A stretch of DNA of 32,000 nt from Kiritimatiella glycovorans (GTDB lineage Bacteria; Verrucomicrobiota; Kiritimatiellia; Kiritimatiellales; Kiritimatiellaceae). How positions within the stretch are numbered: the first letter of the stretch is position 1; each line of letters begins with the position of its first letter. The notes under the pieces were generated by a model, which worked only from the letters and a program-made list of their open reading frames with translations, had not been told where the DNA came from and did not search any database. The translations under genes and the position numbers were made by a program. The stretch lies in contig NZ_CP010904.1 in NCBI RefSeq assembly GCF_001017655.1, forward strand, positions 1,830,001-1,862,000, read 5' to 3'. Positions 5,912 through 28,431 of the stretch are shown here, piece by piece.

Positions 5912-5914
5912 TCT

Positions 5915-9572: not shown

Positions 9573-9576
9573 CCTC

Positions 9577-10356: not shown

Positions 10357-10497
10357 TGGTCATGTCCTCGCTTTGCTCGTCATTGGTCATTTGCGGGCTT
10401 TGCCCGCGTCATTTGCTCACTTTGTTCGCGTCATCGGTCATCAGTCATTAGTCATCGGTTGTCTCCTCCATTGACCAATGACCAATGACTAATGACC
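10352..10497. repeat. Composite heptamer-hairpin array (GGTCATT-orientation units, then GGAGGAGAC, then AATGACC-orientation units)
   Basis: It contains GCGGGC TTT GCCCGC and the degenerate spacers CTCGCTTTGCTCG and CTCACTTTGTTCG. It is homologous in unit order to the array at 15213-15343. Confidence 0.9.
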
Positions 10498-12155: not shown

Positions 12156-13098
12156 GCGTCGCCCCTTCCTGATGACCCGCGGGAGCGTTCGTCTGCGCGG
12201 GAATGAGCGTCTGGAGTAGATCGAACGGCTGGGTTTGGGGATCGATCAGAAACGTGGAGTTGTTGGAGAGCATGGTTTCGAGCGCTTCGAGTTTCCGCAC
12301 GAACACGGCAAACTCCTCGTTGCGGGCAAACACCTCGTAGTAGCGGGCCGCGGCGGCGTCGCCCTCCGCCCGAAGGGCCTGTGCCTTGCGGTTCGCGAAG
12401 GCCAGGATGCGGTCGCGGTCGCTTCTCGCCTTGGCCTCGATCCCGGCCGCGATCGCTTGTCCCTCGGATTGCGCGTTCTGAGCCAATCGGCGGCGCGTCT
12501 GGCGCATGCGCTCGTACACCGAGTTCGCAATCTGATCGGGGAACTGCAGGCGCTTGATGCCCACCCGGGCGATGCTGATGCCATAATCCTTGCCGGCCAG
12601 ATCCTGGCGCAGCCGCACCAGAATGCGCTCTTCGAGTTCTTGGAGCTTGAGCCGGGAGGGATCCGTGTTTGCCAACTCGTCCAAGGTGTAGTTGCCTACC
12701 TCCGACCGCGTGGTACGTAGGCGGTCTACGAGAAAGCGCGTGGCGTTCTCGTCGTCCTGCATGGAGCGCATGAAGGCAAGACCATCGCTTACGCGCCACA
12801 CGAGGTAGGTTTTCAGAATCACGATCTGCTTGTCCTTGGTTTCCTGCTGTTCCAGACGATCTTCGATCAAGCGCAGCCTTGTGTCGAAGAACCGCACTTG
12901 CTGGATAGGCCAGGGCCACTTGAAGTAGAATCCGGCCGATTGGCCGTCGCGATTGCGAACATCCGCCTCGTCGGCACGACCGAAAGTGGTGACGACGGCC
13001 GTTTGGTCGAATCGCACAACGAAGCTCGTTGCGTAGAGCACCAGTCCGGCAACCACACAAAGGGCCAGCAACCATCGAAGAACACGGTTCGTTTTCAT
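12148..13098 (-). CDS. hflC: HflC-like SPFH protein (protease modulator family)
   Basis: MKTNRVLRWLLALCVVAGLVLYATSFVVRFDQTAVVTTFGR...GISIARVGIKRLQFPDQIANSVYERMRQTRRRLAQNAQSEGQA...ARYYEVFARNEEFAVFVRKLEALE closely follows the HflC pattern. It has an ATGA overlap with the upstream gene. Confidence 0.85.
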   Translation of the reverse strand: MKTNRVLRWLLALCVVAGLVLYATSFVVRFDQTAVVTTFGRADEADVRNRDGQSAGFYFKWPWPIQQVRFFDTRLRLIEDRLEQQETKDKQIVILKTYLVWRVSDGLAFMRSMQDDENATRFLVDRLRTTRSEVGNYTLDELANTDPSRLKLQELEERILVRLRQDLAGKDYGISIARVGIKRLQFPDQIANSVYERMRQTRRRLAQNAQSEGQAIAAGIEAKARSDRDRILAFANRKAQALRAEGDAAAARYYEVFARNEEFAVFVRKLEALETMLSNNSTFLIDPQTQPFDLLQTLIPAQTNAPAGHQEGATHE

Positions 13099-15212: not shown

Positions 15213-15343
15213 ACTCGCTTTGCTCGTGTCATTGGTCATTGGTCATGTACTCGCTTTGCTCGTGTCATTTACTCACTTCGTTCGGGTCATTGGTCATTGG
15301 TTGCATCACGCGCCGCAGGCGCCAATGACTAATGACCACTGAC
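15213..15343. repeat. Composite heptamer-hairpin array
   Basis: ACTCGCTTTGCTCGTGTCATTGGTCATTGGTCAT occurs twice, followed by TCATTTACTCACTTCGTTCGGGTCATTGGTCATTGG, the hairpin GCGCC GCA GGCGC, and CAATGACTAATGACCACTGAC. It overlaps the ATPase stop. Confidence 0.9.
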
Positions 15344-17251
15344 CTCCAAATCCTCCAGATCCTCGCCTTCCCGAACGAGGCGAGCGGAGTTGACGATCAC
15401 GATGAACGTGCTTGCCGTGTGCAGCAGGACCGCGACGACGGGATGGATGATACCTGTTGCGCTCAAGGCGAGCATGCCGACCACGTACACGCTCGAGAAC
15501 ACTAGGTTCTGCCGCACCACGGAGGTCAGGCGGCGTGCCAGGTGGAAAAGGAAGGGAATACGATTCAGTTCGTTGTTCAGCAGAGCCATACGTGCCGCAT
15601 GGATCGCGGCTTCGCTACCAGCCGCACCCATGGCAATCGAAAGATCGGCTTCGGCGAGCGCCGGCGCATCGTTGATCCCGTCTCCGACGGCGGCAACAAG
15701 CCCCTCGTCGGCACGAAGACGCTTCACCGCATCCATCTTCTGTCCTGGGAGCAGTTCGGCGACCACATCCGTGAACGTCAGATGCCTGGCGACCGCCTCC
15801 GCCACAGGCCGGCGGTCTCCCGTCAACATGACACAATGCGACACGCCTTCATCCCTCAACTGGCCGACGACCTCGGAGGCACCGGGCCGCAACTCGTCTT
15901 CCAGGACTACCCGTCCGAGCAGGTTCCCGTTTTTTGCGATGAGAACCACGCTGCCCTGACGGTCGTCCTCGTCGGATTCAGATGCCATCTTGACGCCTGC
16001 ATCGATCAAGAACTCGCGGCGACCAGCCAACACCGTGTTACCACTCAAGACGCCACGGACGCCCCTGCCGGGCTCTTCCTCACAGTTCCGGATGTCGGCT
16101 GGGTGTATCTCTCGCTCTCGCGCGGCGCGCACAATGGCCTGTGCAGCGGGGTGGTTCGAATGCGCTTCGATGCCTGCCGCGAAACGCAGTAGCTCGTCCT
16201 CGGTAACTCCGTCGGCAGGTTGCAGGCCCACGACATGCAGACGCCCGCGAGTAATGGTGCCCGTCTTATCGAACACCACAGCCTTGATCCTCCCGGCGAT
16301 TTCGAGATCGGCAATGTTCTTGATCAGAATGCCCAGGCGCGCGGCGGCGCTGAGCGCCGCAACGGCCGCGGTCGGGCCGGAGAGGAGGATCGCGCAGGGG
16401 CAGGCCACAACCAGCATGGCAACCGTCCGATCCATGTCGCGTGTGAAGAAGAGCACGATGGAAGCCAGAATGAGCACCAGCGGCGTGTACCAGCCGGCGT
16501 AGCGGTCGACCAGACGCATGACAGGAGTGCGGGTGGCTTCGGCCTCCAGGATCAGCGAGCGCACTTGCTCGAGGGTTGTGTCCTGCCCCGCCCGTCCGAT
16601 CTCAACGTCCAAGACGCCCGTTACGTTCACCGTGCCCGCAAAGATGGAATCGCCTTCTCCCTTCTCAACGGGAAGGGACTCGCCGGTGATCGTCGCTTCG
16701 TTGAGCGTGCTTCGTCCTGCCACGATGATTCCGTCTCCCGGCACCAATTCCCCAGGCCGAACGCGGATACGCTCTCCGACGCTGAGCGCAGCCGCTTCCA
16801 CCGCTTCCTCTCCCGATGGCGTGATGCGGCGCGCCGATGCGGGGCGGAGGCGAATGAGCGCCTCAATGCTCCTTCGCGCGCCGGATGCCGAGCGGTCTTC
16901 GATCATGTTCGAGATCTGCACGAAGAACGCCACAGCGGCGGCAGTGAGATGCTCCCCGGCAGCAAACGCCGCACCGATTCCCAGCGCCGCCATGACGTTC
17001 AGATTGGGTCGGCTCAGAGCCAGGTCGCGCATGGCCGTTGCCACTAAGGGAAGACCCAGTACGACGGCGGCCGCTATTGCCACGATGTCCGCGTGGAACG
17101 GGTGCGCGAAGAGCCGCGACGCAATCAGAGCCGCCAGCAGCAGCATGCCGCCAAAGAGAAGAACGACGGTCCGCAGCGTAGCTGCAGGCCGATGAGCATC
17201 GCTGCTACCATTGGGGCTGGCAGATGGATTCTCTGAGTAGTCAGTTGTCAT
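15329..17251 (-). CDS. Heavy-metal-translocating P1B-type ATPase (CPC motif; no N-terminal HMA/CxxC domain)
   Basis: Motifs seen: TGESLPV (A-domain), VVACPCAILLSGP (TM CPC), DKTGTIT (phosphorylation site), HSNHPAAQAI (HP), MLTGD, GDGINDAPAL. Four predicted TM helices precede the A-domain. There is no GMxCxxC metal-binding domain. Confidence 0.95.
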   Translation of the reverse strand: MTTDYSENPSASPNGSSDAHRPAATLRTVVLLFGGMLLLAALIASRLFAHPFHADIVAIAAAVVLGLPLVATAMRDLALSRPNLNVMAALGIGAAFAAGEHLTAAAVAFFVQISNMIEDRSASGARRSIEALIRLRPASARRITPSGEEAVEAAALSVGERIRVRPGELVPGDGIIVAGRSTLNEATITGESLPVEKGEGDSIFAGTVNVTGVLDVEIGRAGQDTTLEQVRSLILEAEATRTPVMRLVDRYAGWYTPLVLILASIVLFFTRDMDRTVAMLVVACPCAILLSGPTAAVAALSAAARLGILIKNIADLEIAGRIKAVVFDKTGTITRGRLHVVGLQPADGVTEDELLRFAAGIEAHSNHPAAQAIVRAAREREIHPADIRNCEEEPGRGVRGVLSGNTVLAGRREFLIDAGVKMASESDEDDRQGSVVLIAKNGNLLGRVVLEDELRPGASEVVGQLRDEGVSHCVMLTGDRRPVAEAVARHLTFTDVVAELLPGQKMDAVKRLRADEGLVAAVGDGINDAPALAEADLSIAMGAAGSEAAIHAARMALLNNELNRIPFLFHLARRLTSVVRQNLVFSSVYVVGMLALSATGIIHPVVAVLLHTASTFIVIVNSARLVREGEDLEDLEVSGH

Positions 17252-17284
17252 TGGTCATGCACTCGCTCCGCTCTCGTCACTTGA
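17241..17284. repeat. Degenerate heptamer element (TCAGTTGTCATTGGTCATGCACTCGCTCCGCTCTCGTCACTTG)
   Basis: It resembles the CTCGCTTTGCTCG-type units at 10352-10385 and 15213-15275. It contains the ATPase ATG. Confidence 0.7.
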
Positions 17285-17592
17285 CGATGGCACGCCAGAG
17301 ACCACAGCCGCGTGAGCCACAGCCACGAGTGCCGACAATACGGCAGCCAGCCATGCGGCAGCCCACCGAAGCAGGGGCAGCCGCTCGCGCGGAAACGCCC
17401 CACAAGGCAGAACCACGTGTTTCCGCCGCGAGGTGCGGCCCTCCCGTTCTTGCGGCGGCGCAACGCTCACGAGTAGGCGATAGTGATCGTAGCGAGAATG
17501 GTCACAGCCAATTGGCCGCAACAGCTCCGCCGTGCCTGACTCGACGAGATCTTCGAGGAGGCACGTGGCAGCGGCAACAGAAATACGCAAGT

Positions 17593-17701: not shown

Positions 17702-19735
17702 TCAGAATCTCGCTTTGACCATTACCTTCACGTTGCGGCCGGGCTGATCGTTGAGGCCGAATCCCTGCCAAACCGAAGATAGATGATCCTGGTACAGCTC
17801 GTCGGTGAAGTTCTCGACCGCCGCGACGAAGCTCCACGTCTCGCCGAGATCGACGCCCATGCGCACATCGCCACGCGTGTACCCGTCGGTCTCGCGCTCG
17901 TTGGGGCCGGTCTTGTCCTGATCCGATGCGGTCAGCCCCGCCAGCTCGACCCATAGCCCGTTTTCCGCGCCCAGTGTCGCGTCGTAGCGCACACCGTAGC
18001 GGCCTTTCAGCGGCGGGATGCCCGGAAGGTCTTCTCCTGTATCGTCGTTCTCGCCACGCACATACGACACCGAGGCGAAGGTCGAGAATCCGCCGCCCAC
18101 GTCGTAGTCCACGCCGGCTTCCGCGCCGTACAGAGAGACCTCCGCATAGTTCATGTAGAGGTAGTTGCCATCGCCCTGGTTCTCCTTGACGATGTAGTCG
18201 TCGACCATGTTGTAGAAGGCGCTGACCATCGTTTGCAGCCGGTCGGTCCGGGTCTTCAGTCCGATGTCGAAGTTCCAGCTCGTCTCCGAATCGAGGTCGG
18301 GGTCTCCCAAATCGCTGCCGACGTCGTGCGGCCCGTCGAAGTACAACTCCAACAGGGTTGGTGCGCGGAATGCCCGGCCCACGTTGCCGTACAGATTGAT
18401 TTCGTTGCTCAACTTGTACAGCAGGCCCAGGTTGCCGCTCACCGCGCTGCTTTCGGAGGTCTCCTCGCCGGCGAGTTGGTGACGCGGGTGCCCGTCCGTC
18501 TGCGCCTCTATCCAGTCGGCGCGGAGCCCCGGTGTGACGACCCAGCGGTCGCCCAGAGCGATCTCGTCCTGCACAAATGCCCCAACGCCCATGCGTGTAG
18601 AGTTCGGGATGACCGGCACGCCGTCGAACTTTGGATGCGCCCACGAGGATGCGCTGTCTTGGATCGTGCGGTCAGACGTTGCGTCCTCATAGAACGTGTC
18701 CAGACCGAACGTCACGCGGTGCGTATCGTTGGGAACGAGCACGACCTGCGGCTTGAGCGTATAGGTGTCGATATCGAGCCAGATGTTGACATCCAGGTCA
18801 CCTCCACTGGCCTGAATCGGCGGCGGAAGCCCATCGACCTTGCGGCGGTAGCGATGCCGGTTATGCCGCTGCCAGCCGAAGTCGATGCTGAAACGCTCTG
18901 TTGCACCGGTGAAGTCGTCGGCCTCGAAGCCGAGCGCAAGGCGATGGTGTTTCTCGCCCTTGAAGTAGTCCTCGGCAAAAGCAGCGGGAGCGGGGATCCC
19001 GATATCCGCCTCCATGAAGGAGTAGTCGGCATAGGTCTTCCATCCGTCGCCGATATAGTTGCCGCCACCCCAGAGGGTGTAGCCCTCGTAGAAGCTGTTC
19101 GCCAGTTCGCCTTCGGGAGTCTCGATATTGCCTGCATCCTTGTAGGTTCCACCGACATAGCCGTTGAACCGGCCTTGCCCGAACCGTAGGTGCGCCGACT
19201 CCTTCCAGCCATCAGTGGCGCTTTCGTACTGCACATCGGCCTCGCCGCCGAACCGTGCTTCGGGCCCGGTCTCCTCGTCGGCTCCCTTCGTGATGAAGTT
19301 GATCACCCCGCCGATCGCGTCCGAGCCGTACAGCACCGACGCCGGGCCGCGGACAACCTCCACTCGCTGGATCTGGGCCGGATCGAGCGAGAACACATGG
19401 TTTCCGCCGGGGCGCTGTTCGGATAGACGCACACCGTTGACGAGCACCAGTACGCGCTCACCGCTCAAGCCGCGGATGATCGGATGCACGCTGCCCGGTC
19501 CGGCGGTTACGACATCCACGCCGGGTTCTTTCAAAAAGATCTCGGCAACCGTCACCGCGATCTTCTCGTCAAGATCACGAGACTCCAGTAGGTTCACGGG
19601 CAGTGACGTGTCGAACGACTCCTTCTCGCTTCCGGTCGGTGTCACGACCACATCGGTGAGCGTGACGGTCTCTTGGGCAAAAACAAACGACGCGCAGCAC
19701 AACGCGGCTGCGACAAATATGGACATACTCTTCAT
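17702..19735 (-). CDS. TonB-dependent outer-membrane receptor
   Basis: Signal peptide MKSMSIFVAAALCCASFVFAQE. TonB-box-like LTDVVVTP. Plug motifs IRGLSGERVLVLVNGVRL and VEVVRGPASVLYGSDAIGGVINFITK. A long beta-barrel ends in ...NVKVMVKARF. GGGGAG lies 9 nt upstream of the ATG at 19735. The track start at 19768 lies in the repeat. Confidence 0.95.
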   Translation of the reverse strand: MKSMSIFVAAALCCASFVFAQETVTLTDVVVTPTGSEKESFDTSLPVNLLESRDLDEKIAVTVAEIFLKEPGVDVVTAGPGSVHPIIRGLSGERVLVLVNGVRLSEQRPGGNHVFSLDPAQIQRVEVVRGPASVLYGSDAIGGVINFITKGADEETGPEARFGGEADVQYESATDGWKESAHLRFGQGRFNGYVGGTYKDAGNIETPEGELANSFYEGYTLWGGGNYIGDGWKTYADYSFMEADIGIPAPAAFAEDYFKGEKHHRLALGFEADDFTGATERFSIDFGWQRHNRHRYRRKVDGLPPPIQASGGDLDVNIWLDIDTYTLKPQVVLVPNDTHRVTFGLDTFYEDATSDRTIQDSASSWAHPKFDGVPVIPNSTRMGVGAFVQDEIALGDRWVVTPGLRADWIEAQTDGHPRHQLAGEETSESSAVSGNLGLLYKLSNEINLYGNVGRAFRAPTLLELYFDGPHDVGSDLGDPDLDSETSWNFDIGLKTRTDRLQTMVSAFYNMVDDYIVKENQGDGNYLYMNYAEVSLYGAEAGVDYDVGGGFSTFASVSYVRGENDDTGEDLPGIPPLKGRYGVRYDATLGAENGLWVELAGLTASDQDKTGPNERETDGYTRGDVRMGVDLGETWSFVAAVENFTDELYQDHLSSVWQGFGLNDQPGRNVKVMVKARF

Positions 19736-19759
19736 CTTGAAATTCTCCCCTGTTGGTAG

Positions 19760-19994
19760 ATTGGTCATTGGTCATTTGGCCGCTGCGCGGCCGTCATTGG
19801 TGATTGGTCATCGGTCATTGGCCATTGGTCATTTGCGCCTACGGCGCGTCAATAGTCATTGGTCAATAGTCATTGGTCATTTGCGCCTGCGGCGCGTCAT
19901 TGGTCATTGGTTCTGGGTCATTGCCGCGAATGACTGATGACTGCGGGCGAAGCCCGCAAAATGACCAATGACTAATGACGCGGCCGAAGGCCGC
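19760..19994. repeat. 235-bp array of five heptamer-hairpin units (three in one orientation, then two inverted)
   Basis: Hairpins are GGCCGC TGC GCGGCC, GCGCC TAC GGCGC, GCGCC TGC GGCGC, GCGGGC GAA GCCCGC and GCGGCC GAA GGCCGC. They are separated by runs of GTCATTG / AATGAC heptamers. The array fills the whole gap between the small Cys/His protein gene and the receptor gene. Confidence 0.9.
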
Positions 19995-19995
19995 C

Positions 19996-20391
19996 TCAGG
20001 CGGGAGGTCCGCAGGAGAAGGGCAGGAGGCGCGGGGTCTTGAAATCCGGCTGACTTGGTACAGCCGGCAGGGCGATCTCGACAGGTGCGAACTGCGGCAA
20101 GGCGATTGCCACAACCGCCGTATCGACAGGAGTCTTCGCGAGCTGACAGATCGAGCAGGTTGACGGGTCGTGCGGCTTCCTTTGCGGGTGAGAGTCGCGC
20201 GAACGCTCGGGCGTCTCGTGGCCGTTCGCGTGCTCCCGCGAGTGGTCGTGCGAGCAACAAGAATGACGGACACCTTTCGCAATGTCGTCGTCGGCACAGG
20301 CCAGCTCCAGCCTGTGCATGGCGGGAACAAGCAGTGTCCCCACCACGAACAGGAGCAAGCCACCGATTGCCAGTTGTCTTCTCTCTGTCAT
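19996..20391 (-). CDS. Small Cys/His-rich exported or membrane-anchored protein (131 aa; possibly DUF2946-like)
   Basis: N-terminal hydrophobic helix (LAIGGLLLFVVGTLLVPA). Motifs HSCCSHDHSREHANGHE and STCSICQLAK. Codon third positions are strongly G/C. It is the first gene of the receptor/ATPase train and a paralogue of 23008..23400. Confidence 0.55.
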   Translation of the reverse strand: MTERRQLAIGGLLLFVVGTLLVPAMHRLELACADDDIAKGVRHSCCSHDHSREHANGHETPERSRDSHPQRKPHDPSTCSICQLAKTPVDTAVVAIALPQFAPVEIALPAVPSQPDFKTPRLLPFSCGPPA

Positions 20392-20497
20392 ACACAAAAC
20401 AAACGCGCTCTATCTCAACCAAGTTTGGGGCGCCTAACATACAACCAGCTACGGCAGGGGTCAATCCCAAATGGCGTGTGGCAAGCGGCATGAGAAG

Positions 20498-21691
20498 TGT
20501 AATGTGAAATGCCGCAGGTATAGGAGAGAGCGTTCCATGCCGTGGTTCGCTATCCTTTGTGGTCTTACAACAGGACAACAGAGGAAGGAGACGGCATGGA
20601 ACAGAATCAGAATAGCAGGAAGGGCAAGCACTTGACGAGGGTGGAGCGCATGGTGATTGAGCGGATGTCCCGTGGGGGGATCCCCCCACGGGACATCGCG
20701 GCCGCCTTGGAGCGTCACCCGCGTACGATCCAGCGTGAGCTCAAGCGCGGGACGGTGACCCACCGGGACTCGGAGTGGCGGGAATACCGGACCTACAGCA
20801 GCGATCGCGGCCAGGACCTCCATGATTACCACGCCACCGCAAGGGGGCCCGGTCTGAGGCTGGGCCGCAACTATGCGCTGGCCGAATTCATCCGTTGCCG
20901 CATTGTGGAACATAAGGAATCGCCCGATGTAGTCGCCTTTCGGATGCGTCAGGCCGGTCTGGAGGAGGTGGTGTGCACCAAGACGATCTATAACTACATC
21001 GATAAAGGCGTCATTTTCGGGCTCAGCAACGAGTCACTGTGGGAGAAGCGTAAGCGAGCCAAGCGGCGCAAACGCGGCGCTCGGCGGTTGGCGAAGCGGA
21101 TTTCCAAAGGCAAAAGCATCGACCAGCGTCCCGAAGGAGCCGAGACGCGCGAGGAGTTCGGACACTGGGAGATGGACCTGGTGACCGGCCCCACGCGCGG
21201 GTCCAATGCCGCCCTATTGACCCTGGTGGAACGCAGACATCGGATCACGATCATTCGCAAGCTGCCTGATAAGAGCCAAGCCAGCGTGCTCAAAGTTCTC
21301 AGAGGGCTCGAGCGTGAACATGGCTCCCGCTGCTTCCGTCAGATCTTCAAGACCATCACGGTCGACAACGGCAGCGAGTTCCTGGACTTCGAAGCCTTAG
21401 AAGCCTCTTCCTTCTCGAAGCAACAGCGAACCCAGATCTTCTACGCCCACCCATACTCATCCTGGGAACGCGGATCGAACGAGAACGGCAACAGGATGAT
21501 CAGACGGTTCGTGGCCAAGGGCCGGGATATCGCGCGCTTTACCAAGCAGAAAATCCGCGACATCGAGCTATGGATCAATAACTACCCGCGCCGGATCCTC
21601 GACTTCATGACCCCTCACGAACTCTTCACGAACGAACTCAAAACGATCTCATAAATGAAACAAGACCACTACATGCGGCATTTGGTTTACA
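20498..21691 (+). mobile_element. IS30-family insertion sequence
   Basis: A single DDE transposase ORF. Imperfect terminal inverted repeats are TGTAATGTGAAATGCCGCAGGTA (20498-20520) and the reverse complement of 21669-21691, TGTAAACCAAATGCCGCATGTAG. The boundaries are approximate. Confidence 0.75.
20596..21654 (+). CDS. IS30-family transposase
   Basis: An N-terminal HTH region (LTRVERMVIERMSRGG, RTIQRELKR). DDE-domain motifs GHWEMDLV, TVDNGSEF and PYSSWERGSNENGNRMIRRF. GGAAGGAG lies 5 nt upstream of the ATG at 20596. Confidence 0.95.
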   Translation: MEQNQNSRKGKHLTRVERMVIERMSRGGIPPRDIAAALERHPRTIQRELKRGTVTHRDSEWREYRTYSSDRGQDLHDYHATARGPGLRLGRNYALAEFIRCRIVEHKESPDVVAFRMRQAGLEEVVCTKTIYNYIDKGVIFGLSNESLWEKRKRAKRRKRGARRLAKRISKGKSIDQRPEGAETREEFGHWEMDLVTGPTRGSNAALLTLVERRHRITIIRKLPDKSQASVLKVLRGLEREHGSRCFRQIFKTITVDNGSEFLDFEALEASSFSKQQRTQIFYAHPYSSWERGSNENGNRMIRRFVAKGRDIARFTKQKIRDIELWINNYPRRILDFMTPHELFTNELKTIS

Positions 21692-21728
21692 ACCTACCGT
21701 GTGGCAAGCGGCAGAGGAAGGAACTGTC

Positions 21729-21772
21729 ACCAATGACCAATGACGCGGCGAAGCCGCACATGGCTCATGACC
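21729..21772. repeat. Heptamer-hairpin element (CACCAATGACCAATGAC GCGGC GAA GCCGC ACATGGCTCATGACC)
   Basis: Read directly. Confidence 0.85.
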
Positions 21773-21786
21773 GAGCGATTTGGGTA

Positions 21787-21814
21787 TTGACAAGGTCATA
21801 TATATCTGTATTCT
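21787..21814 (+). promoter_or_regulatory. Sigma-70-like promoter candidate TTGACA-16 nt-TATTCT, 7 nt before the ATG of the DUF4143 ATPase (near-leaderless)
   Basis: A consensus -35 hexamer within a locally AT-rich patch of a GC-rich genome. There is no Shine-Dalgarno sequence between it and the ATG at 21822. Confidence 0.3.
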
Positions 21815-21821
21815 GACCATT

Positions 21822-22970
21822 ATGTACACCAGATTACTGAAGCAACCATGGGCCACTGGACAGAGTTTCTTCCTGTTTGGCCCGCGAGGTACAGGAAAGA
21901 CGACCTGGCTGCATCGGGGTCTCGATGCCGAAGGCAGTCTCTACCTCGACCTGCTGAACGACGACCTGTATACCGAGCTGCTGGCTCGGCCGCACCGGCT
22001 GGACACGTTGGTTGGCGATCGGCGCTGGGACTGGGTCGTGCTGGACGAAATCCAGCGCGTTCCCGCGCTGCTGAATGAAGTGCACCGGCTCATCGAGAGC
22101 CGGGGACTCCGTTTCGCCATGACGGGTTCCAGCGCCCGAAGCCTGAGACGCAGGGGCACGAATCTACTGGCCGGGCGCGCTCTTACGTTTCACATGCACC
22201 CGCTGGCCGCGGCGGAACAGGGCGAGGACTTCGACCTCGCCCGCGCCATTCGGTTCGGACAGCTTCCGGGCGCACTGAAGAGTGCGGCGCCGGATGCACA
22301 TCTTGCGTCCTATTTCCGCACCTACCTCCGCGAAGAAGTCCAGGAGGAAGGTCTGACGCGTCGACTGGGGAACTTTGCCCGTTTTCTTGAAACGGCGAGT
22401 TTCTCTCAGGGCTCCCCGCTCAACGTCTCCGCCGTGGCCCGGGAAGCGGCCCTTGACAGGAAGGTTGTGAACAACTACTTCGGCATCCTGGAAGACTTGC
22501 TCATCGGTCATCGGCTGCCGGCATTCACGAAGCGCGCGCGACGCAGGCTGACGTCGCATCCCAAGTTCTACTTCTTCGATGCGGGCGTGTATCGCTCGAT
22601 ACGCCCCATGGGGCCTCTGGACAGTCCCGAAGAAGCGGAAGGCGCCTGCCTGGAGACGCTGTGCTATCAGGAGCTGCGAGGCGTCAACGACGCGCTCGGC
22701 TTGGGATATGACCTGTACTATTGGCGCACAAGCGACGGCACGGAGGTCGACTTCGTGTTGTACGGCAAGGCCGGCATTCTTGCCTTCGAAGTCAAACGAG
22801 CCGCCCGCTACACCGCGAAGGACTTGAGCGGCTTGCGCAGTTTCAAACGCGACTACCCCTCCGCGCGCTGCTTCCTGCTGTACGGCGGGCATGACCGCCG
22901 CCAGGAGGGGGATATCCAGGTCTGTCCTCTCGATCAGACATTGCCCGCGCTTCCCGCCATACTTGCTTGA
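21822..22970 (+). CDS. AAA+ ATPase with a DUF4143 C-terminal domain (AAA_14 family)
   Basis: FLFGPRGTGKTT (Walker A) and WVVLDEIQRVP (Walker B). Later motifs FARFLETASFSQGSPLNVSAVARE and YYWRTSDGTEVDFVL are typical of DUF4143 proteins. The start is chosen at MYTRLL. Confidence 0.9.
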   Translation: MYTRLLKQPWATGQSFFLFGPRGTGKTTWLHRGLDAEGSLYLDLLNDDLYTELLARPHRLDTLVGDRRWDWVVLDEIQRVPALLNEVHRLIESRGLRFAMTGSSARSLRRRGTNLLAGRALTFHMHPLAAAEQGEDFDLARAIRFGQLPGALKSAAPDAHLASYFRTYLREEVQEEGLTRRLGNFARFLETASFSQGSPLNVSAVAREAALDRKVVNNYFGILEDLLIGHRLPAFTKRARRRLTSHPKFYFFDAGVYRSIRPMGPLDSPEEAEGACLETLCYQELRGVNDALGLGYDLYYWRTSDGTEVDFVLYGKAGILAFEVKRAARYTAKDLSGLRSFKRDYPSARCFLLYGGHDRRQEGDIQVCPLDQTLPALPAILA

Positions 22971-22994
22971 CAAGACTATCGGCGTGGATATACT
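22967..22994 (+). promoter_or_regulatory. Sigma-70-like promoter candidate TTGACA-16 nt-TATACT for the efflux operon
   Basis: Read directly. The -35 overlaps the stop of the ATPase gene. The -10 ends 13 nt before the ATG at 23008, which argues for 23008 rather than 22996 as the start of the small Cys-rich gene. Confidence 0.4.
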
Positions 22995-23007
22995 TATGCC
23001 GCGTGAC

Positions 23008-23400
23008 ATGAAGATCGTTTGTTCAGCGTTGATCGTGCTTGCCCTGTTTGGGCAGATGCCGTGTATGTGCGGGCCGGAGTGTTTCAGTATGCGGAGCGCA
23101 TCCGCGGTCGAAGCACCGACGACGGAAGCCCCTTGCTCATGCTGCGCCAGCCACGGGGAATCCGCGCCTGAACAGGAAACCGAACCCGATGCTTGCGATT
23201 GTGTCGTCTGCAAGACGGCAAGCTCCGCGCCCGCCGTCACGGCGAACCATGACACGGTCAGGCTTTCCACCGTTGTTGGCGCGGCCCCCGTTCGGGATGG
23301 TACGATCCGGCCCCGCGAATCCCATTCCAGCGTCCACACGCCAATCGTGCGACCGTCCGGTCCGCCGATCTATCTTGCCCTCAAAGTCCTGCTGATCTGA
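23008..23400 (+). CDS. Small Cys-rich secreted protein (130 aa), paralogue of 19996..20391
   Basis: MKIVCSALIVLALFGQ is signal-like. It has a CMCGPEC cluster, PCSCCASHGES, an acidic linker, DACDCVVCKTA, and a Pro-rich tail ending in the hydrophobic YLALKVLLI. Codon third positions are G/C-rich. It lies directly upstream of the adaptor gene. Confidence 0.55.
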   Translation: MKIVCSALIVLALFGQMPCMCGPECFSMRSASAVEAPTTEAPCSCCASHGESAPEQETEPDACDCVVCKTASSAPAVTANHDTVRLSTVVGAAPVRDGTIRPRESHSSVHTPIVRPSGPPIYLALKVLLI

Positions 23401-23482
23401 TTTGCCGTTCTACCTGCGGCGGATCCCCCATTGTGACAGTCCCCCAGGGACTGCTGTCTCAACATGCAGGATATCGAAGGAT

Positions 23483-24712
23483 ATGGAACCCGGAACGGAC
23501 AAGAGACAATCAAGAAGGTATGGCGGGGCTCGATGGAAACCCGTTGTGTTGGCCGTGCTGCTTCTCGGCGGGCTGATCGCCGTCCTGGTCTTCATCTTCC
23601 GAGATCAGCTCACGCCCGCCAAGCCGGTCGGGACCGGCCGAGTCATTCTGCTGGCCGGCGATACGGATAGCGCGTCGTCACCGGTTGCGGGCGACGAGCT
23701 GCTCTTCCAGGCCTCGGGCTGGATTGAGCCCGATCCGTGGCACGTGGATGCCTTCACCCTCGTGGACGGCTTTGTCCTGGATGTCTACGTCAAGGAAGGC
23801 CAAGCGGTCACGAACGGTCAGATAGTTGCGCGTCTCGACCCGGGGGACGCGGAACTCGGCCTGCGGGTCGCCGCGGCGGCCGTCAGGGCGGCCCGCGCGC
23901 GTGTCGAGACGGCGCGGGATACATGGTCGCGGATCGAGCCGCTGCCCGCGCGCGACACCACCCCCGCGGAACGCGTGGCGGCCGAGAATGCCGTGGTGGA
24001 ACTGGATGCGGAGCTGGCCGTGGCGGAAGCCAAACGGGACATGGCTCAACTCGCCCTTGACCGGACGGTCGTGCGCGCCCCGATAGACGGGATCGTGCAG
24101 CGGCTGTATGCGCATCCGGGCTTGAAACGGCGGGCGGGGAGCGACGATCCGGAAAGTACGACCATCGTGTCGCTATTCGATCCCGCCAGGCTCCAGGTGC
24201 GGGTGGACGTGCCTCTCGCGGAGGCCGGTCGGCTGTTCGTGGGACAGCCGACGCGCATCTCCACGGCGATGCTGCCGGGCGCGGTCTTCACCGGGCGGGT
24301 GACGCGCATCGTGGGCGAAGCCGACCTGCAACGCAACACGCTGCAGGCCAAGGTCGAGGTCCATGATCCGGATCCGAGAATGCGGCCGGAAGTCTTGTGT
24401 CGAGTCGAGTTCCGGGGGAGCAGCGGCAGCCAGGGGAATGCGCAAACGTCGGCCAACACAGGCCGACAGACCCTGTGGATTCCGGAGGAAGCCTTGGGCG
24501 ATCCTTCACGCTCCGAACAGGACGTCTGGGTCATCGATCCCATCTCGGACCGGGCCGAGCGGCGCGCGGTACGCCTGGGGCCTTCGCGTCGTGACGGCTA
24601 CCGGCGCGTCCTCGACGGGCTGCGTCCGAACGAAACGGTCGTCACGTCGGGAGCGGCTCAACTCGAAGCCGGCGACCGTGTCATCGCGCGCAACAAGGAG
24701 GATTCACCATGA
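23483..24712 (+). CDS. HlyD/RND-type periplasmic adaptor (membrane fusion protein)
   Basis: N-terminal TM helix (WKPVVLAVLLLGGLIAVLVFIF). Lipoyl/hairpin motifs GFVLDVYVKEGQAVTNGQIVARLD and VVRAPIDGIVQRL, then beta-barrel and MPD regions. GAAGGA precedes the ATG at 23483. Confidence 0.9.
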   Translation: MEPGTDKRQSRRYGGARWKPVVLAVLLLGGLIAVLVFIFRDQLTPAKPVGTGRVILLAGDTDSASSPVAGDELLFQASGWIEPDPWHVDAFTLVDGFVLDVYVKEGQAVTNGQIVARLDPGDAELGLRVAAAAVRAARARVETARDTWSRIEPLPARDTTPAERVAAENAVVELDAELAVAEAKRDMAQLALDRTVVRAPIDGIVQRLYAHPGLKRRAGSDDPESTTIVSLFDPARLQVRVDVPLAEAGRLFVGQPTRISTAMLPGAVFTGRVTRIVGEADLQRNTLQAKVEVHDPDPRMRPEVLCRVEFRGSSGSQGNAQTSANTGRQTLWIPEEALGDPSRSEQDVWVIDPISDRAERRAVRLGPSRRDGYRRVLDGLRPNETVVTSGAAQLEAGDRVIARNKEDSP

Positions 24713-25398
24713 GCGACGTCCTGATTCACTGCCACAAGCTGACCAAGCATTACAGGAAGGGGCCCCGCACCGTGACCCCGCTCGAAGCGCTGGACCTCGA
24801 CATAGAACGGGGGGACTTCGTCTCGCTTATGGGGCCTTCCGGCTCCGGCAAGACCACGCTGCTGAACCTGATCGCCGGGATCGATACGCCCAGCGAGGGC
24901 GTGCTGGAAGTCTGCGGCGAGGATATTACCCGGTTATCGCGCGGCCGACTGGCGCGGTGGCGCGCCCACCACGTGGGCTACATCTTCCAGCTCTACCACC
25001 TTGTGCCAGTGTTGACGGCATTCGAGAATGTCGAACTGCCGTTGCTGCTCGACGACATCTCGCGACGCGAGCGGCGCGAACGCGTGGAGCAGACCTTGGC
25101 GATGGTCGGGTTGGGCGACCGCATGCACCACTACCCGCGCGAGCTATCCGGCGGTCAGGAACAGCGTGTTGCCATCGCGCGGGCGCTGGTCGCGTCGCCC
25201 GAGCTGCTGGTGGCCGACGAACCGACCGGCGACCTCGACCGCGAGGCGGGCGATGCCGTTCTCGCGTTGCTGCAGAACCTGCGCGCCGAGCACAATAAGA
25301 CCATCGTGATGGTGACGCACGATCCGCACGCCGCGGACGCATCGGCCCGGGTTCTGCACCTGGAAAAAGGACAACTCCTGGAGGCGCAGCATGCTTAG
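24709..25398 (+). CDS. ABC transporter ATP-binding protein (LolD/MacB-ATPase-like)
   Basis: GPSGSGKTTLLN (Walker A), LSGGQEQRVAIARAL (signature), LLVADEPTGDLD (Walker B), VTHD (H-loop). It has an ATGA overlap with the adaptor gene. Confidence 0.95.
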   Translation: MSDVLIHCHKLTKHYRKGPRTVTPLEALDLDIERGDFVSLMGPSGSGKTTLLNLIAGIDTPSEGVLEVCGEDITRLSRGRLARWRAHHVGYIFQLYHLVPVLTAFENVELPLLLDDISRRERRERVEQTLAMVGLGDRMHHYPRELSGGQEQRVAIARALVASPELLVADEPTGDLDREAGDAVLALLQNLRAEHNKTIVMVTHDPHAADASARVLHLEKGQLLEAQHA

Positions 25399-26542
25399 CA
25401 AAGCGGGACGGCTTGCCCTTTTGGCAACGAAGCAGCTCTGGCGCCATCCGGTCCGAACGTCGCTGACACTGCTGGGCGTGGCGTCCGGGATGTTCCTGTT
25501 CACGACCGTGCAGACGATGCAGACGACCCTTGACCGCGCCACGCGCGTGCAGGCCGCGGACACGACGCTGGTGGTCTACCGCGAGAACCGGTTCTGTCCG
25601 CAGACCAGCCGGCTTCCGGAGTACTACGAGAACGAGATCCGGGCCATTCCCGGCGTCCGGGAAGTCATCCCCATCAAGGTCACCGTCAACAACTGCGGGG
25701 CCAGCCTGGACGTCATTACCTTCCGCGGCGTTCCGCCGGGCCAGTTGGCGCGATATGCTCCGGAGATCGCCGTGATCCGGGGGTCGTACGACGACTGGAA
25801 GAATCGTGACGACGGCGCCCTCGTGGGGAAGCAGTTGGCCGACAAACGCGGACTGCAGCCGGGCGACGCCTTCGAGGCGGTTGGTGTCCGGGTGATCGTG
25901 AGTGGCATCATCGATTCGCCCCTGCCGCAGGACAACGCCGTGGCCTACGTCCACCTTCCGTTTCTGCAGCAGGCCTCGCGACACGGCTTGGGAGTCGTGA
26001 CGCAGTTCAACGTACGCGTGCAGCCCGGCGAGGATATCGAGCGCGTGGCCACGGCGATCGACAAGCGCTTCAAGAGCGAGACCGAACCGACCGTGACGCA
26101 GCCGGAGAAGGCGTTTTTCGCCCAGACGGCGCGCGAGCTGATTGACCTGATCGGGTTCACGCGCTGGATCGGCTATGGCGCCGTGCTTGCCGTCGTGGGG
26201 CTCATTGCCAACGCCGTTCTGCTCGTGGTTCGGGGGCGCGTCCGCGAGAACGCCATCCTCCAGACGGTGGGCTTCCCCGAAAGCGCAGTGGGCTTTGTCG
26301 TGGTCTCCGAGGGGGCGGTGCTGGGGTTTGTAGGGAGCTGCATAGGGATCGTACTGGCGTCCGGTTTTCTGGCGTGGCGCGGTCTGACCTTCGGCAACGA
26401 GGGGCAGACGCTGGCGCTTGTTCCTGACGCGTCGGTTATGGCGACCGGACTGGGGCTGGCGCTCGTTCTCGGGATGACGGCCGCGCTCGGGCCGGCCTGG
26501 ATCGCCATGCGCAGACCGATTGTCGAAAGCTTGAGGAGCTGA
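25391..26542 (+). CDS. FtsX/MacB-type ABC permease 1
   Basis: 383 aa. It has TM1, a large periplasmic domain, and three C-terminal TM helices (FTRWIGYGAVLAVVGLIANAVLLVVRGRVRENAILQTVGF). It has an 8-nt overlap with the ATPase gene. Confidence 0.9.
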   Translation: MLSKAGRLALLATKQLWRHPVRTSLTLLGVASGMFLFTTVQTMQTTLDRATRVQAADTTLVVYRENRFCPQTSRLPEYYENEIRAIPGVREVIPIKVTVNNCGASLDVITFRGVPPGQLARYAPEIAVIRGSYDDWKNRDDGALVGKQLADKRGLQPGDAFEAVGVRVIVSGIIDSPLPQDNAVAYVHLPFLQQASRHGLGVVTQFNVRVQPGEDIERVATAIDKRFKSETEPTVTQPEKAFFAQTARELIDLIGFTRWIGYGAVLAVVGLIANAVLLVVRGRVRENAILQTVGFPESAVGFVVVSEGAVLGFVGSCIGIVLASGFLAWRGLTFGNEGQTLALVPDASVMATGLGLALVLGMTAALGPAWIAMRRPIVESLRS

Positions 26543-26545
26543 GCT

Positions 26546-27697
26546 ATGTTGCCGTTTGGCTATGCCGTCAGGAACCTGTTTCGCGATCCGAAGAGCCTCT
26601 TCCAGGCCGTGCTCGGGAGCGCGCTGGTTGTCCTCATGGTGATGGTCGCCGCCGCGCTGAACGACGGCATGGCCGGTGTGCTATCGGCATCCGGTTCGCC
26701 GCGGAACGCGATCCTGCTGGGCGCCGGCAGCGAGGACAGCGTGCTTCGTAGCGAGATCTCCGAACGCGCGGCCGGCATTGCCGAGTCGAGCCTGAACGGA
26801 CTGGCGGAGATCGCGGGTGTCCGCGCGGTCTCGCCGGAGATCCATCAAATGACCCTGGTCTCGGCCGCCGGGTCGGATCAGCGGCAGGCCCTTGTTCGCG
26901 GCGTGACGGAACGCGCGCCACTGGTGTACACAAAGATGACCGTCACCGAGGGGACTTTCGCGCGGCCCGGCGGCGTCATGGTCGGCCGCCTTGCGTGGCG
27001 GAGGCTCGGCCTGCCGAAGGACGCCCTTGGACCCGGCCGGGAGATCGTCGTCGAGGATGTGACCATGACGGTAGCGGGCGTCTTCGCCGCGCCCGGCACG
27101 GTCATGGAGTCCGAGATCTGGATGGATTTGAACGACCTCCGATCGCTGTCGCTGCGGAAGAACCTGAGCTGTGTCGTCCTGCGCCTGGATGGCGGGGCGT
27201 TTCCCGATGTGGACCTGTTCGCGAAACAGCGTCTCGACCTTGAGCTCGCGGCGCTACGGGAGAGCGACTACTTCGCGAGGCTGTCCGCTTTCTATGCACC
27301 CATTCGCGGCATGACCTGGATGACGGCGATCCTGATTGCGACCGGCGCGTTGCTCGGTGGACTGAACACGCTCTACGCCGCGTTCTCGCCGCGCATCCGC
27401 GAGATCGCGACGCTGCAGGCCATCGGGTATGGACGCGGGGCGATTCTGTTCTCGCTCATCCAGGAAGCGACCCTTGCCGCCCTGTGCGGCGCCGTGGTCG
27501 CGGCGACGGCGGCCGTGTTGTTCCTGGAAGGGGTTGCGGTCTCGTTCTCGATCGGAAGTTTCGTCCTGCGCGTCACGCCGGTCGTGGCGGCGGTTGGGTT
27601 CGGTACAGGGTTGGGTCTTGGCCTGGTCGGAGCGATCCCGCCCGGACTGCGCTGTTTGCTCCCGCCGGTGCATGAGGCGTTGCGGTCGGCGGGGTAG
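26546..27697 (+). CDS. FtsX/MacB-type ABC permease 2
   Basis: 383 aa with the same architecture (MTWMTAILIATGALLGGLNTLYAAFSPRIREIATLQAIGY). GAGGAG precedes the ATG. Confidence 0.9.
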   Translation: MLPFGYAVRNLFRDPKSLFQAVLGSALVVLMVMVAAALNDGMAGVLSASGSPRNAILLGAGSEDSVLRSEISERAAGIAESSLNGLAEIAGVRAVSPEIHQMTLVSAAGSDQRQALVRGVTERAPLVYTKMTVTEGTFARPGGVMVGRLAWRRLGLPKDALGPGREIVVEDVTMTVAGVFAAPGTVMESEIWMDLNDLRSLSLRKNLSCVVLRLDGGAFPDVDLFAKQRLDLELAALRESDYFARLSAFYAPIRGMTWMTAILIATGALLGGLNTLYAAFSPRIREIATLQAIGYGRGAILFSLIQEATLAALCGAVVAATAAVLFLEGVAVSFSIGSFVLRVTPVVAAVGFGTGLGLGLVGAIPPGLRCLLPPVHEALRSAG

Positions 27698-27711
27698 GAA
27701 GGGGCATGGGT

Positions 27712-27733
27712 CCATGGTCATTGGTGATTGGTG
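27712..27733. repeat. Short heptamer run (CCATGGTCATTGGTGATTGGTG)
   Basis: Read directly. Confidence 0.7.
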
Positions 27734-27769
27734 CGGCAAAGAGAAGACAGGAACATGGAGGATAGGCGG

Positions 27770-28357
27770 ATGAAGAAGAGATGGCTTGGATTGATGGTAG
27801 TGGCTGCGATGGTCGTCGGCGTGGGGTGCGGGAAGAAGGCGGAGCAGGGCTCGGTCGAGCCGGTAGCCGTGCCCAAGGCGTTTGTCAGTGAAGAGCCGGC
27901 CGGAGAGCCGACACCGATCCCTGAAGCACGCAAGCTGCCACCGGGGACGGATGTGCTTCTCAAAGGGCTCGTCATGGGTGTGCGCAGTCCGTTTGTCGAG
28001 GGCCGCGCCCTGTTCATTCTCGGCGACGAAGCCACGATCACGCCGTGCAACGCCAAAGACGATGACCATTGCTCCATGCCCTGGGACGCCTGCTGCGATC
28101 CGCTCGAGGTGCGTGCCGCCGGCACGGCGGCGATACAGGTGCTGGACGATACGGGCGAGGTTTTGGAGCAGGGCCTCAAGGGCGTGAACGGCCTCAAGGA
28201 ACTGAGTCGCGTGACCGTCGCCGGCGCCGTGGCGCCACACTCGACGACGAACGCATTCGTCGTCAACGCCGCGTCGTTGTACGTGGAGCCCGAAGCAAGC
28301 AACCAACCAGAAGCCAAAGACGCCCACGCAACCTGCCCGAGCTGCCCCGCAAAGTGA
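27770..28357 (+). CDS. Cys-rich putative lipoprotein embedded in the efflux operon (195 aa)
   Basis: MKKRWLGLMVVAAMVVGVGCG is a signal peptide with a lipobox-like Cys. GGAGGA precedes the ATG. There is a Cys/His/Asp cluster (TPCNAKDDDHCSMPWDACCDP) and a C-terminal HATCPSCP. I recognise no family. Confidence 0.65.
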   Translation: MKKRWLGLMVVAAMVVGVGCGKKAEQGSVEPVAVPKAFVSEEPAGEPTPIPEARKLPPGTDVLLKGLVMGVRSPFVEGRALFILGDEATITPCNAKDDDHCSMPWDACCDPLEVRAAGTAAIQVLDDTGEVLEQGLKGVNGLKELSRVTVAGAVAPHSTTNAFVVNAASLYVEPEASNQPEAKDAHATCPSCPAK

Positions 28358-28367
28358 TGCAGGCCAC

Positions 28368-28431
28368 AAATGACCAATGACCAATGACTAATGACCAGTG
28401 ACCGCCGCGCAGCGGCCAAATGACCAATGAC
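28368..28431. repeat. Heptamer-hairpin element (AAATGACCAATGACCAATGACTAATGACCAGTGAC CGCCGC GCA GCGGC CAAATGACCAATGAC)
   Basis: Read directly. Its last ATG is the start codon of the TolC-like gene. Confidence 0.9.

Follow-up and report, generated by a model that had tools for sequence, protein, structure and literature searches.

Proteins of the DUF2946 family (PF11162) are defined by an export signal, a CxxC motif and a C-terminal RAPP or PPP motif, with 45 ± 2 residues between the two motifs, and they act in cis as nascent proteins, the perception of copper by the cysteine motif altering the stalling of the ribosome at the proline motif (PMC9426467; bioRxiv 10.1101/2025.02.05.636593). Experiments on members of the family have shown that copper-responsive control of the downstream gene depends on CxxC and on RAPP/PPP (PMC9426467; bioRxiv 10.1101/2025.02.05.636593). 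This control is exerted by Rho-dependent termination in the case of CruR (Bp2923) of Bordetella pertussis, the leader of a TonB-dependent transporter gene (Roy et al., mBio 2022, PMC9426467), and by the opening of a stem over the ribosome-binding site in the case of CutF of Rhodobacter capsulatus (cutFOG; PMC9973294; bioRxiv 10.1101/2025.02.05.636593). Here we describe two small open reading frames (ORFs), P1 and ORF2, in a stretch of 32,000 nucleotides of Kiritimatiella glycovorans (contig NZ_CP010904.1, positions 1,830,001 to 1,862,000 of the forward strand), referred to as the window, to which all coordinates below refer. P1 precedes a TonB-dependent receptor gene and ORF2 precedes the genes of an ATP-binding cassette (ABC) efflux pump. 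On balance we favour the reading that the two are separate, non-paralogous leader ORFs of the same design, each controlling the transport operon behind it, with ORF2 most probably being a regulatory leader of a new, CruR/CutF-like kind.

Two further groups of described systems are of relevance here. SecM, ApdA, ApdP and the secreted RAPP/RGPP proteins are small exported proteins with a C-terminal R-(A/G)-P-P-like motif (Fujiwara et al., EMBO J 2025, PMC12992588). In small secreted proteins, RGPP or RAPP close to the C-terminus is an established arrest core in which the Arg is critical, and upstream ORFs of this type are widespread before TonB receptors (PMC12992588); efflux, adaptor or ABC genes do not appear among the downstream classes in the main text of that article. 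The second is CC2720 of Caulobacter crescentus, a DUF2946 protein encoded before czrCBA, which is a precedent for such a leader ahead of a metal pump (PMC4176598). An initial annotation of the window, made from its letters alone, had described the two ORFs with their cysteine motifs, hydrophobic N-termini and shared layout, all of which are present, the layout being kept within each of the two families. It had also held the pairing of such proteins with transport genes to be undescribed, which does not stand given the published CruR system (PMC9426467) and the published DUF2946 gene before czrCBA (PMC4176598).

The features of the ORF2 operon are as follows.
22967–22994, plus strand: promoter-like site of the ORF2 operon (TTGACA-16-TATACT, 11 of 12 matches)
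23008–23400, plus strand: ORF2, leader ORF of 130 aa (translation; family without an existing profile)
23483–29773, plus strand: efflux operon headed by ORF2 (Pfam and NCBIfam), made up of the five entries below
23483–24712, plus strand: membrane-fusion adaptor, HlyD/CzcB-like (start fixed by alignment)
24709–25398, plus strand: ABC ATPase
25391–26542 and 26546–27697, plus strand: two MacB/FtsX-type permeases
approximately 27728–28357, plus strand: small ORF without a family match, between the second MacB permease and the OEP gene
28427–29773, plus strand: OEP/TolC-like channel

The translation of ORF2 reads MKIVCSALIVLALFGQ...PCSCCASHGES...CDCVVCKTA...RPSGPPIYLALKVLLI, the last element being the C-terminus. 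Behind a signal-like hydrophobic N-terminus, with C19, C21 and C25, the motif PCSCCASHGES occupies residues 42–52 and CDCVVCKTA residues 63–71, placing the CC pair at 45–46 (nt 23140–23145) and CxxC at 65–68 (nt 23200–23211). There follow a spacer of 49 residues, SGPP (GPP codons at nt 23359–23367) and a 10-residue tail, IYLALKVLLI. The promoter-like site ends 13 nt before the ATG, so that the 5′ untranslated region (UTR) would be very short, and three related loci (L011, L008 and L012) hold a promoter-like site at the equivalent position.

ORF2 is absent from both protein collections that were searched, so that gene calling in the source genome must have passed it over, and it has no match among the Pfam and NCBIfam models. 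Word-indexed protein searches with ORF2 alone and with a five-sequence profile gave nothing new. An exhaustive HMMER search of 1.84 billion representative proteins returned four full-length homologues (32–46% identity), in which C21, C25, C46, C63, C65 and C68 are invariant and the C-terminus reads RPPGPPxYLxLEVLLI. Each of the four is the gene directly before an adaptor gene; the two long contigs among them (L011 and the JGI contig of P0021) share the order adaptor, ABC ATPase, MacB, MacB, and L011 alone goes on past the MacB genes with a 170-aa ORF and an OEP gene. This 170-aa ORF sits in the slot of the window's small ORF and may represent a conserved extra component of the pump.

A search with the adaptor protein through 185,579 species genomes gave 258 loci, all from the Planctomycetes–Verrucomicrobia–Chlamydiae (PVC) superphylum, and the best 80 of these were examined. 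The closest adaptor loci belong to metagenome-assembled genomes of Kiritimatiellia/Victivallales (52–62% identity), followed by Verrucomicrobiales, Akkermansiaceae and Opitutales. In about 70 of the 80 loci a same-strand ORF of 115–180 aa ends 75–290 nt before the adaptor gene, in agreement with the proposal that ORF2 is the first gene of the efflux operon. Protein searches thus underestimate the family, giving five members as against about 70 when the regions ahead of adaptor genes are inspected.

Members share a hydrophobic N-terminus, C-x-C or C-x3-C, a nearly invariant CC, a second cysteine pair (CC, CxxC or CxDC) and C-termini such as PIRGPxxPAAYRAVLGIWRL, RGSPPPxxxPLYLRxxVLRL or GPPLYLxFEVLRT, the tail after the proline motif being 10–15 residues long. 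C19, C25, C45, C46 and C65 are nearly invariant, against a mean column identity of 23%. Ten representatives of the family, including the version from Akkermansia, had no Pfam match (the latter also no NCBIfam match), the family profile found nothing in a sequence search of the PDB, and Rfam gave no match at the gathering score or at E ≤ 1. AlphaFold, run on ORF2 with a narrow alignment, gave no confident fold (mean predicted local distance difference test, pLDDT, 43.7). The ORF2 frame has the highest GC at third codon positions (codon-position GC 0.60/0.57/0.69). ORF2 is, judging from this conservation, a real gene of an undescribed family confined so far to the PVC superphylum; the literature search, of incomplete coverage, found no description of it.

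The distance from the last cysteine pair to the proline motif is nearly fixed in these proteins, with a median of 52 residues and an interquartile range of 50–53, in contrast to the N-terminal part, which ranges from 49 to 91 residues. Among 25 sequences of less than 40% pairwise identity, 22 have a spacer of 48–57 residues and the three exceptions are motif mis-assignments. A spacer whose length holds while its sequence varies has also been reported for DUF2946 (45 ± 2 residues). An extended chain that starts at the peptidyl-transferase centre and passes the ribosomal tunnel and SecYEG would need roughly 50 residues. Of 72 members, 60 have a proline motif, a literal RGPP or RAPP occurring in L020, L025, L063 and L084, and the 72 fall into the following classes.
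canonical R[AG]PP: 4
R-x-(S/P)-P-P: 13
counted as (R/H/A)GP-x-x-P: 19
xGPP or DPP without adjacent Arg, including the SGPP of the window: 14
other PPP/xPP: 10
none: 12

The codons of the ORF2 tail are also involved in an RNA helix with the start region of the adaptor gene, the two arms of which were placed by RNAalifold on ten loci.
23381–23391, plus strand: 5′ arm TCAAAGTCCTG, the codons L-K-V-L of the ORF2 tail
23467–23477, plus strand: 3′ arm CAGGATATCGA, 6–16 nt upstream of the adaptor ATG, holding an AGGA Shine-Dalgarno-like box

In the minimum-free-energy folds the (F/L)-(E/K)-V-L codons pair with the sequence just before the adaptor ATG in five of five loci, and RNAalifold gave for the ten loci a consensus helix of 11 bp (5′ arm TTCGAAGTCCTG, 3′ arm CAGGAyTTCGA). 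The share of identical codons among pairs with the same residue is 0.91 for GAA, 0.78 for GTC and 1.00 for CTG within the helix; outside it, the share is 0.11 for the conserved Leu at −8 and 0.29–0.43 for the Pro, Gly and Tyr codons. Synonymous sites are thus frozen in the helix codons only, which shows constraint on the tail codons at the RNA level.

The two arms of the Akkermansiaceae/Luteolibacter clade have other sequences and pair nonetheless: the partner of the tail arm GGGAATCTGGAGAC (G-I-W-R-L) is GTCCTCCTGATTCCC, immediately ahead of the ATG, and there are matched changes in the arms (ATC/GAT, ATT/AAT and GTT/AAA). Among 63 loci, 17 have the best-pairing stretch of the entire leader ORF in the tail (about 1.1 expected by chance), and the duplex of tail and start reaches p ≤ 0.05 against shuffles in 22. 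These signals were obtained with the target limited to −30 to +6 of the adaptor start; with the whole spacer open to the tail as a target, RNAduplex showed none (median z = −0.19). For 58 loci, a permutation test gave the following values.
tail with the start region of its own locus: mean −15.8 kcal/mol
tail with the start regions of other loci: mean −11.8 kcal/mol (z = −8.65; 0 of 5000 permutations as low as the cognate pairing)
control, middle of the ORF with the start region: z = −0.67
control, tail with the beginning of the spacer: z = +0.34

The tail codons of ORF2 co-evolve with the translation start region of the adaptor gene. For 13 loci of the Akkermansiaceae type RNAalifold did not return the long-range helix and gave two local spacer hairpins instead, and insertions and deletions in the 3′ arm spoil the alignment; the helix of this group rests on per-locus duplexes and on the permutation test. 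The two hairpins, which lie just past the leader stop (L021, L038, L048, L052, L054, L056, L061, L066, L068, L069, L077, L079 and L091), show compensatory changes in 5 of 14 pairs, and a conserved CCG..CGG element comes after them in these leader-adaptor spacers.

P1, the second small ORF, belongs to the following group of features.
20436–20464, minus strand: promoter-like site of P1 (TTGACC-17-TATGTT; 9 of 12 matches in a consensus scan, a weak indication), between P1 and an insertion element of the IS30 family
19996–20391, minus strand: P1, leader gene of 131 aa, DUF2946 of the CruR/CutF type (translation and Pfam)
19736–19995, minus strand: P1-receptor intergenic region with ATGACCA heptamer repeats and GC hairpins
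17702–19735, minus strand: TonB-dependent receptor with plug and beta-barrel domains; start ATG at 19735 (MKSMSIF...) by homology

The ORF of P1 was found where the initial annotation had placed it and its translation, MTERRQLAIGGLLLFVVGTLLVPAM...HSCCSHDHSREHANGHE...TCSICQLAK...PFSCGPPA, carries every motif that had been quoted for it. The loose resemblance to DUF2946 suggested there was borne out by a match to PF11162 of 26.9 bits, above the gathering cut-off of 23.7 (E = 8.9e-6), aligning residues 15–125 of P1 with positions 7–110 of the 117 in the profile. The N-terminus has RR followed by a hydrophobic stretch at residues 7–25; HSCCSHDHS occupies residues 43–51, with CC at 45–46, and after a His-rich linker TCSICQLAK occupies 78–86, with CxxC at 79–82 (nt 20146–20157). 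The C-terminus is CGPPA, the GPP codons lying at nt 20002–20010. The AlphaFold model (narrow alignment) has an N-terminal helix at residues 2–43, a short helix at CxxC and nothing more.

Among 16 homologues of P1 (33–87% identity), H-D-x-x-x-C-x-I-C-Q-L-A is invariant, including C79, I81 and C82, and the clade shares the C-terminus P-F-x-C-G-P-P, in which G128-P129-P130 is invariant and C127 nearly so, one residue before the stop. The distance from CxxC to CGPP is fixed among homologues at 44 residues (83–126). The literal stall motifs RAPP of CruR and PPP of CutF are absent from P1, where CGPP sits instead. To judge from its family match and layout, P1 belongs with the metal-sensing upstream ORFs published as CruR and CutF, CGPP being its putative variant of the stall motif, and it is known in kind. 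Since the published CruR system already has a TonB-dependent transporter gene behind a DUF2946 gene, the pairing of P1 with its receptor had already been described; this half of the locus is an expected member of that system.

With CruR (PMC9426467) P1 shares PF11162, CxxC with a spacing of about 45 residues, the first position in the operon, a long spacer before the next gene and the TonB-dependent transporter, and its hydrophobic N-terminus is a candidate for the export signal or an anchor; it differs in having CGPP for RAPP, an extra CC/His-rich stretch, a receptor that is not OprC-like and genome-wide repeats in the spacer. A receptor of 674–677 aa follows the P1 homologue in five of the five contigs that reach far enough, after a spacer of 107–260 nt (seen in the window, L001/L003/L004, L007, L094 and L096; L095 ends 207 nt past the leader). 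The spacer has about 220 nt with repeats in close relatives and 107–116 nt without repeats in distant ones, its C/G ratio, checked for the composition of Rho utilization (rut) sites, is 1.0–1.4, and no intrinsic terminator was found between P1 and the receptor start. Upstream, the relatives of P1 have unrelated neighbours, namely type II secretion system/pilus genes, a methyltransferase or another receptor.

P1 had been described as heading a train of receptor and P1B-type ATPase. The receptor part of that claim holds, as the receptor is the conserved next gene; the P1B ATPase is no conserved part of the train, since the other neighbours of P1 in relatives vary and in L094 the receptor is followed contiguously by DUF3450, ExbB, ExbB, ExbD, TonB and TPR genes. 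In the window the DUF3450/ExbB/ExbB/ExbD/TonB/TPR genes lie farther downstream of the receptor (4526–10356, minus strand), and between the receptor and this cluster are the P1B ATPase, a small ORF and three SPFH/Band-7 genes (10980–15239), a block inserted into what is, receptor included, a full uptake cluster. The wider expectation that homologues of the two small proteins would be linked with transport genes is likewise upheld for the receptor behind P1 relatives and for the pump behind ORF2 relatives, and fails for the P1B ATPase. This ATPase (15329–17590, minus strand) has a CPC motif, no N-terminal metal-binding domain and neither the YN nor the MxxSS signature of Cu(I) pumps, its NCBIfam scores being nearer to the Cd/Zn type than to the Cu type. 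Ahead of it is a 111-aa ORF (17255–17590) with a C-terminal hydrophobic helix, the stop of which overlaps the ATPase ATG.

By analogy with the experimentally studied family members, P1 would act as an exported nascent chain in which CxxC, together with the CC/His-rich region, would sense metal. The C-terminal proline motif, CGPP in place of RAPP at the family-typical distance of 44–45 residues, would pause the ribosome, and this pause would set the expression of the receptor gene downstream, with a possible involvement of Rho as in CruR. The metal sensed may be other than copper, because the receptor resembles heme/siderophore types and Feo, DtxR and ZnuA genes stand beside the relatives.

A comparable course of events can be proposed for ORF2. 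Its export signal and cysteine clusters are followed by a sequence-variable spacer of about 50 residues, leading like a ruler to the proline motif (SGPP here; RGPP, RAPP, RGSPP or RGPxxP in relatives). As the last codons pair with the ribosome-binding region of the adaptor gene, a ribosome halting at the proline motif, as opposed to one running on to the stop codon, would decide on access to the start site of the pump and so hide or expose it. The signal perceived would be a metal or a thiol/redox signal. That the two genes encode a periplasmic protein for thiol-based handling of metals or cofactors, as had been suggested initially, is not what these data favour: experiments on DUF2946 proteins point to a cis-acting sensor in the form of a nascent chain, and so do the conservation pattern and the RNA of ORF2, although the mature ORF2 protein may have a role as well.

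In mechanism, ORF2 with its helix comes closest to CutF (PMC9973294; bioRxiv 10.1101/2025.02.05.636593). CutF is an exported leader that perceives copper in the periplasm through its cysteine motif and has a proline-rich stall site at the C-terminus; an mRNA stem covers the ribosome-binding site of the next gene, and the gene under control serves detoxification. CutF has CxxxC and PPP and precedes a multicopper oxidase gene, whereas ORF2 has CxxC or CC with xGPP and precedes a MacB-type tripartite pump; ORF2 also lies outside PF11162, and one arm of the stem in its family is inside the last codons of the leader itself. CruR shares with ORF2 the architecture (export signal, cysteine motif, spacer and proline motif) and the position at the head of the operon. 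The two have no detectable homology, and ORF2 differs in its spacer (about 50–52 residues versus 45), in the number of codons after the motif (10–15 versus 3), in having an efflux pump downstream and in the start-site masking that is indicated for it, as against Rho-dependent termination for CruR.

Like the members of the ORF2 family, the RAPP/RGPP arrest peptides are encoded directly upstream of the regulated gene, and the mRNA link between translation of the leader and the downstream start is present in the ORF2 family in the form of the helix. The CGPP of P1 and the SGPP of ORF2 lack their critical Arg, and the Sec/YidC monitors of this group lack the cysteine clusters and the fixed Cys-to-Pro distance of the ORF2 family. 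The CC2720 operon resembles that of ORF2 in its adaptor component, its outer-membrane component and its candidate regulatory leader; it encodes a resistance-nodulation-division (RND) pump for Zn/Cd/Co behind a true PF11162 leader, and ORF2, which is not PF11162, precedes an ABC pump of the MacB type.

A number of observations weigh against this interpretation of the two genes. A recognisable proline motif is missing from 12 of the 72 members of the ORF2 family and the canonical R[AG]PP is found in just four. The SGPP of ORF2 has no adjacent Arg, the nearest lying three residues upstream (RPSGPP), and P1 has neither a literal RAPP nor the Arg essential for RAPP/RGPP arrest (PMC12992588). The helix of the window is weaker than those of relatives (9 of 11 pairs; duplex z = −1.6, p = 0.06, rank 12 of 56), and plain translational coupling would account for a helix at this place too. 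The helix core mostly starts some 22 nt downstream of the final codon of the motif. A ribosome halted on the motif would reach this point with its front edge at most, and with the core outside the stalled footprint both polarities, arrest as on or as off, are conceivable. A paused ribosome may partly melt the helix, as in SecM or CutF; alternatively, only ribosomes released to the stop codon may melt it, so that arrest would mean off. Nothing in the efflux operon identified a metal substrate in the NCBIfam scan, the receptor is closer to heme/siderophore receptors than to the copper receptor OprC (NCBIfam), and P1 relatives adjoin Feo, DtxR and ZnuA genes.

Some of these same points would fit a different explanation, which we consider unlikely, namely that ORF2, and possibly P1, is a mature exported protein, either a Cys-rich metal- or thiol-binding accessory of the pump (CusF-like) or a peptide expelled by MacB, with the RNA helix serving as ordinary translational coupling by which small protein and pump are made together. 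The export signal and conserved cysteines of the ORF2 family agree with this, as do the conservation of the 10–15-residue tail at the amino-acid level across clades, the 12 members without a proline motif and the position of the helix core mostly past the stalled footprint, where any ribosome reaching the stop codon would open it. MacAB-TolC of E. coli is also known to export a Cys-rich periplasmic peptide, the enterotoxin STII. However, conservation in the family is limited to cysteines, spacing and C-terminus, and a spacer of fixed length and free sequence would be odd in a folded binding protein; AlphaFold gave no confident fold for ORF2. No modifying or immunity genes were found in the operon, the frozen synonymous sites speak for tail codons constrained as RNA, and CutF and CruR, the systems most similar to ORF2, are cis-acting.

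Returning to ORF2 as a regulatory leader, we put forward tentatively, as something short of an even chance, that it is the founding example of a PVC-wide class of exported, Cys-bearing nascent-chain sensors. With the ribosome at the proline motif, the spacer would then bring the cysteine cluster to the periplasmic side of the translocon, and pause or release would decide whether the last codons lock the ribosome-binding site of the pump. Such a class would have arisen independently of DUF2946 or diverged from it past recognition. Sensing across the membrane by a stalled nascent chain so far rests on two DUF2946 proteins from Proteobacteria; if the proposal is true for the ORF2 family, the principle would reach a second, sequence-unrelated family, the tripartite pumps of the MacB type and a superphylum that includes Akkermansia. 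A single genome would also use one sensing principle for opposite outputs, the uptake receptor being switched off and the efflux pump on. Genes of the ORF2 family are unannotated and sometimes uncalled, ORF2 having been missed in its own genome, and leaders of this type offer a starting point for identifying the stimuli of these pumps, which are widespread in the PVC superphylum.

The initial annotation had taken P1 and ORF2 for paralogues heading two divergent operons that would share one control region if the elements between them were removed. In its fuller form this explanation, which we regard as improbable, holds them to be members of one thiol-based periplasmic family and of one regulon, with a divergent promoter later split by the IS30 element and a DUF4143 gene. 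Both of these intervening genes were confirmed by their domains, and the region contains the following.
20475–21713, plus strand: IS30-family insertion (HTH_38 and rve domains; repeats)
20542–21654, plus strand: IS30 transposase ORF
20507–20520 and 21670–21683: IS30 terminal inverted repeats
20475–20490 and 21698–21713: 16-nt direct repeat CGTGTGGCAAGCGGCA flanking IS30 (unusually long; 23 nt at 87%)
21822–22970, plus strand: DUF4143 AAA ATPase (AAA_14 and DUF4143), part of neither system

The order of elements is the same in both proteins (signal, CC, acidic/His linker, CxxC, spacer of about 45–50 residues, GPP), and alignment of the two narrow family profiles by hhalign covered the segment from CxxC to GPP with P = 0.0018, at a probability of 15%. 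When the layout (CC...CxxC, 42–52 residues, GPP at most 12 residues from the C-terminus, hydrophobic N-terminus) was searched against a background of 1,253 six-frame ORFs of 80–220 aa, true members of the two families alone were returned. With a hidden Markov model (HMM) of the DUF2946 clade, the top non-self ORFs of the loci were mostly of the ORF2 type, at a non-significant E of 0.2–1, and the IS30 insertion is recent, with flanking direct repeats. Against this, BLASTP of P1 and ORF2 gave E = 5.7, which is chance level, with the motifs not aligned; with the 34-sequence profile of the ORF2 family, hhalign aligned the signal peptides alone; and PF11162 matched neither ORF2, its four homologues nor ten wider members, even at E ≤ 5–10. 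By these comparisons P1 and ORF2 are not demonstrably paralogous.

The shared control region fares no better. Each operon has its own promoter-like site, the neighbours of relatives differ, and the P1 and ORF2 operons are adjacent in no relative examined of either gene. The inverted repeats and flanking direct repeat mark the IS30 element as a discrete insertion, the removal of which would leave the DUF4143 gene in place; signs of recent insertion are limited to the IS30 element and none of mobility were seen for the DUF4143 gene. A last explanation, that ORF2 has arisen by chance within a GC-rich spacer and that the real feature is a long 5′ UTR of the efflux operon, could appeal to its absence from both protein databases and a modest codon-position GC signal, and is barely credible in view of full-length homologues of 32–46% identity with invariant cysteines, the recurrence of the ORF in the same place in about 70 genomes that have diverged at the nucleotide level, and a promoter-like site right before the ATG in four loci.

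Some minor features of the window were also noted. The IS30 insertion lies 11 nt ahead of the −35-like hexamer of P1, and its transposase gene contains a perfect palindrome of 17+17 nt (20664–20697). The DUF4143 gene has a promoter-like site, TTGACA-16-TATTCT, at 21787–21814, ending 7 nt before its ATG, so that its mRNA would be essentially leaderless. A second DUF4143/AAA_14 ATPase gene is found at 30042–31337 on the minus strand; the two are convergent and bracket the ORF2 efflux operon.

Short GC hairpins, GCGCCGNAGGCGC for example, are flanked by tandem ATGACCA heptamers in one or the other orientation, and the repeat as a whole has a REP-like (repetitive extragenic palindrome) or MITE-like (miniature inverted-repeat transposable element) appearance. 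There are 43 matches in the window to ATGACCAATGAC with at most one mismatch, as compared to 0.05 expected, and the repeat is a genome-wide intergenic element. Its sites are at 5863–5910, 6575–6593, 7023–7063, 9501–9571, 10352–10496, 15228–15343, 17247–17258, 19764–19979, 21733–21744, 27717–27728, 28370–28431 and 31414–31517. The ATGs within these repeats give rise to false starts of long ORFs, as in the case of the TonB-dependent receptor, the longest ORF of which starts inside a repeat at 19768. The nearest NCBIfam models of this receptor are of the heme/transferrin and siderophore types, every one of them below its cut-off.

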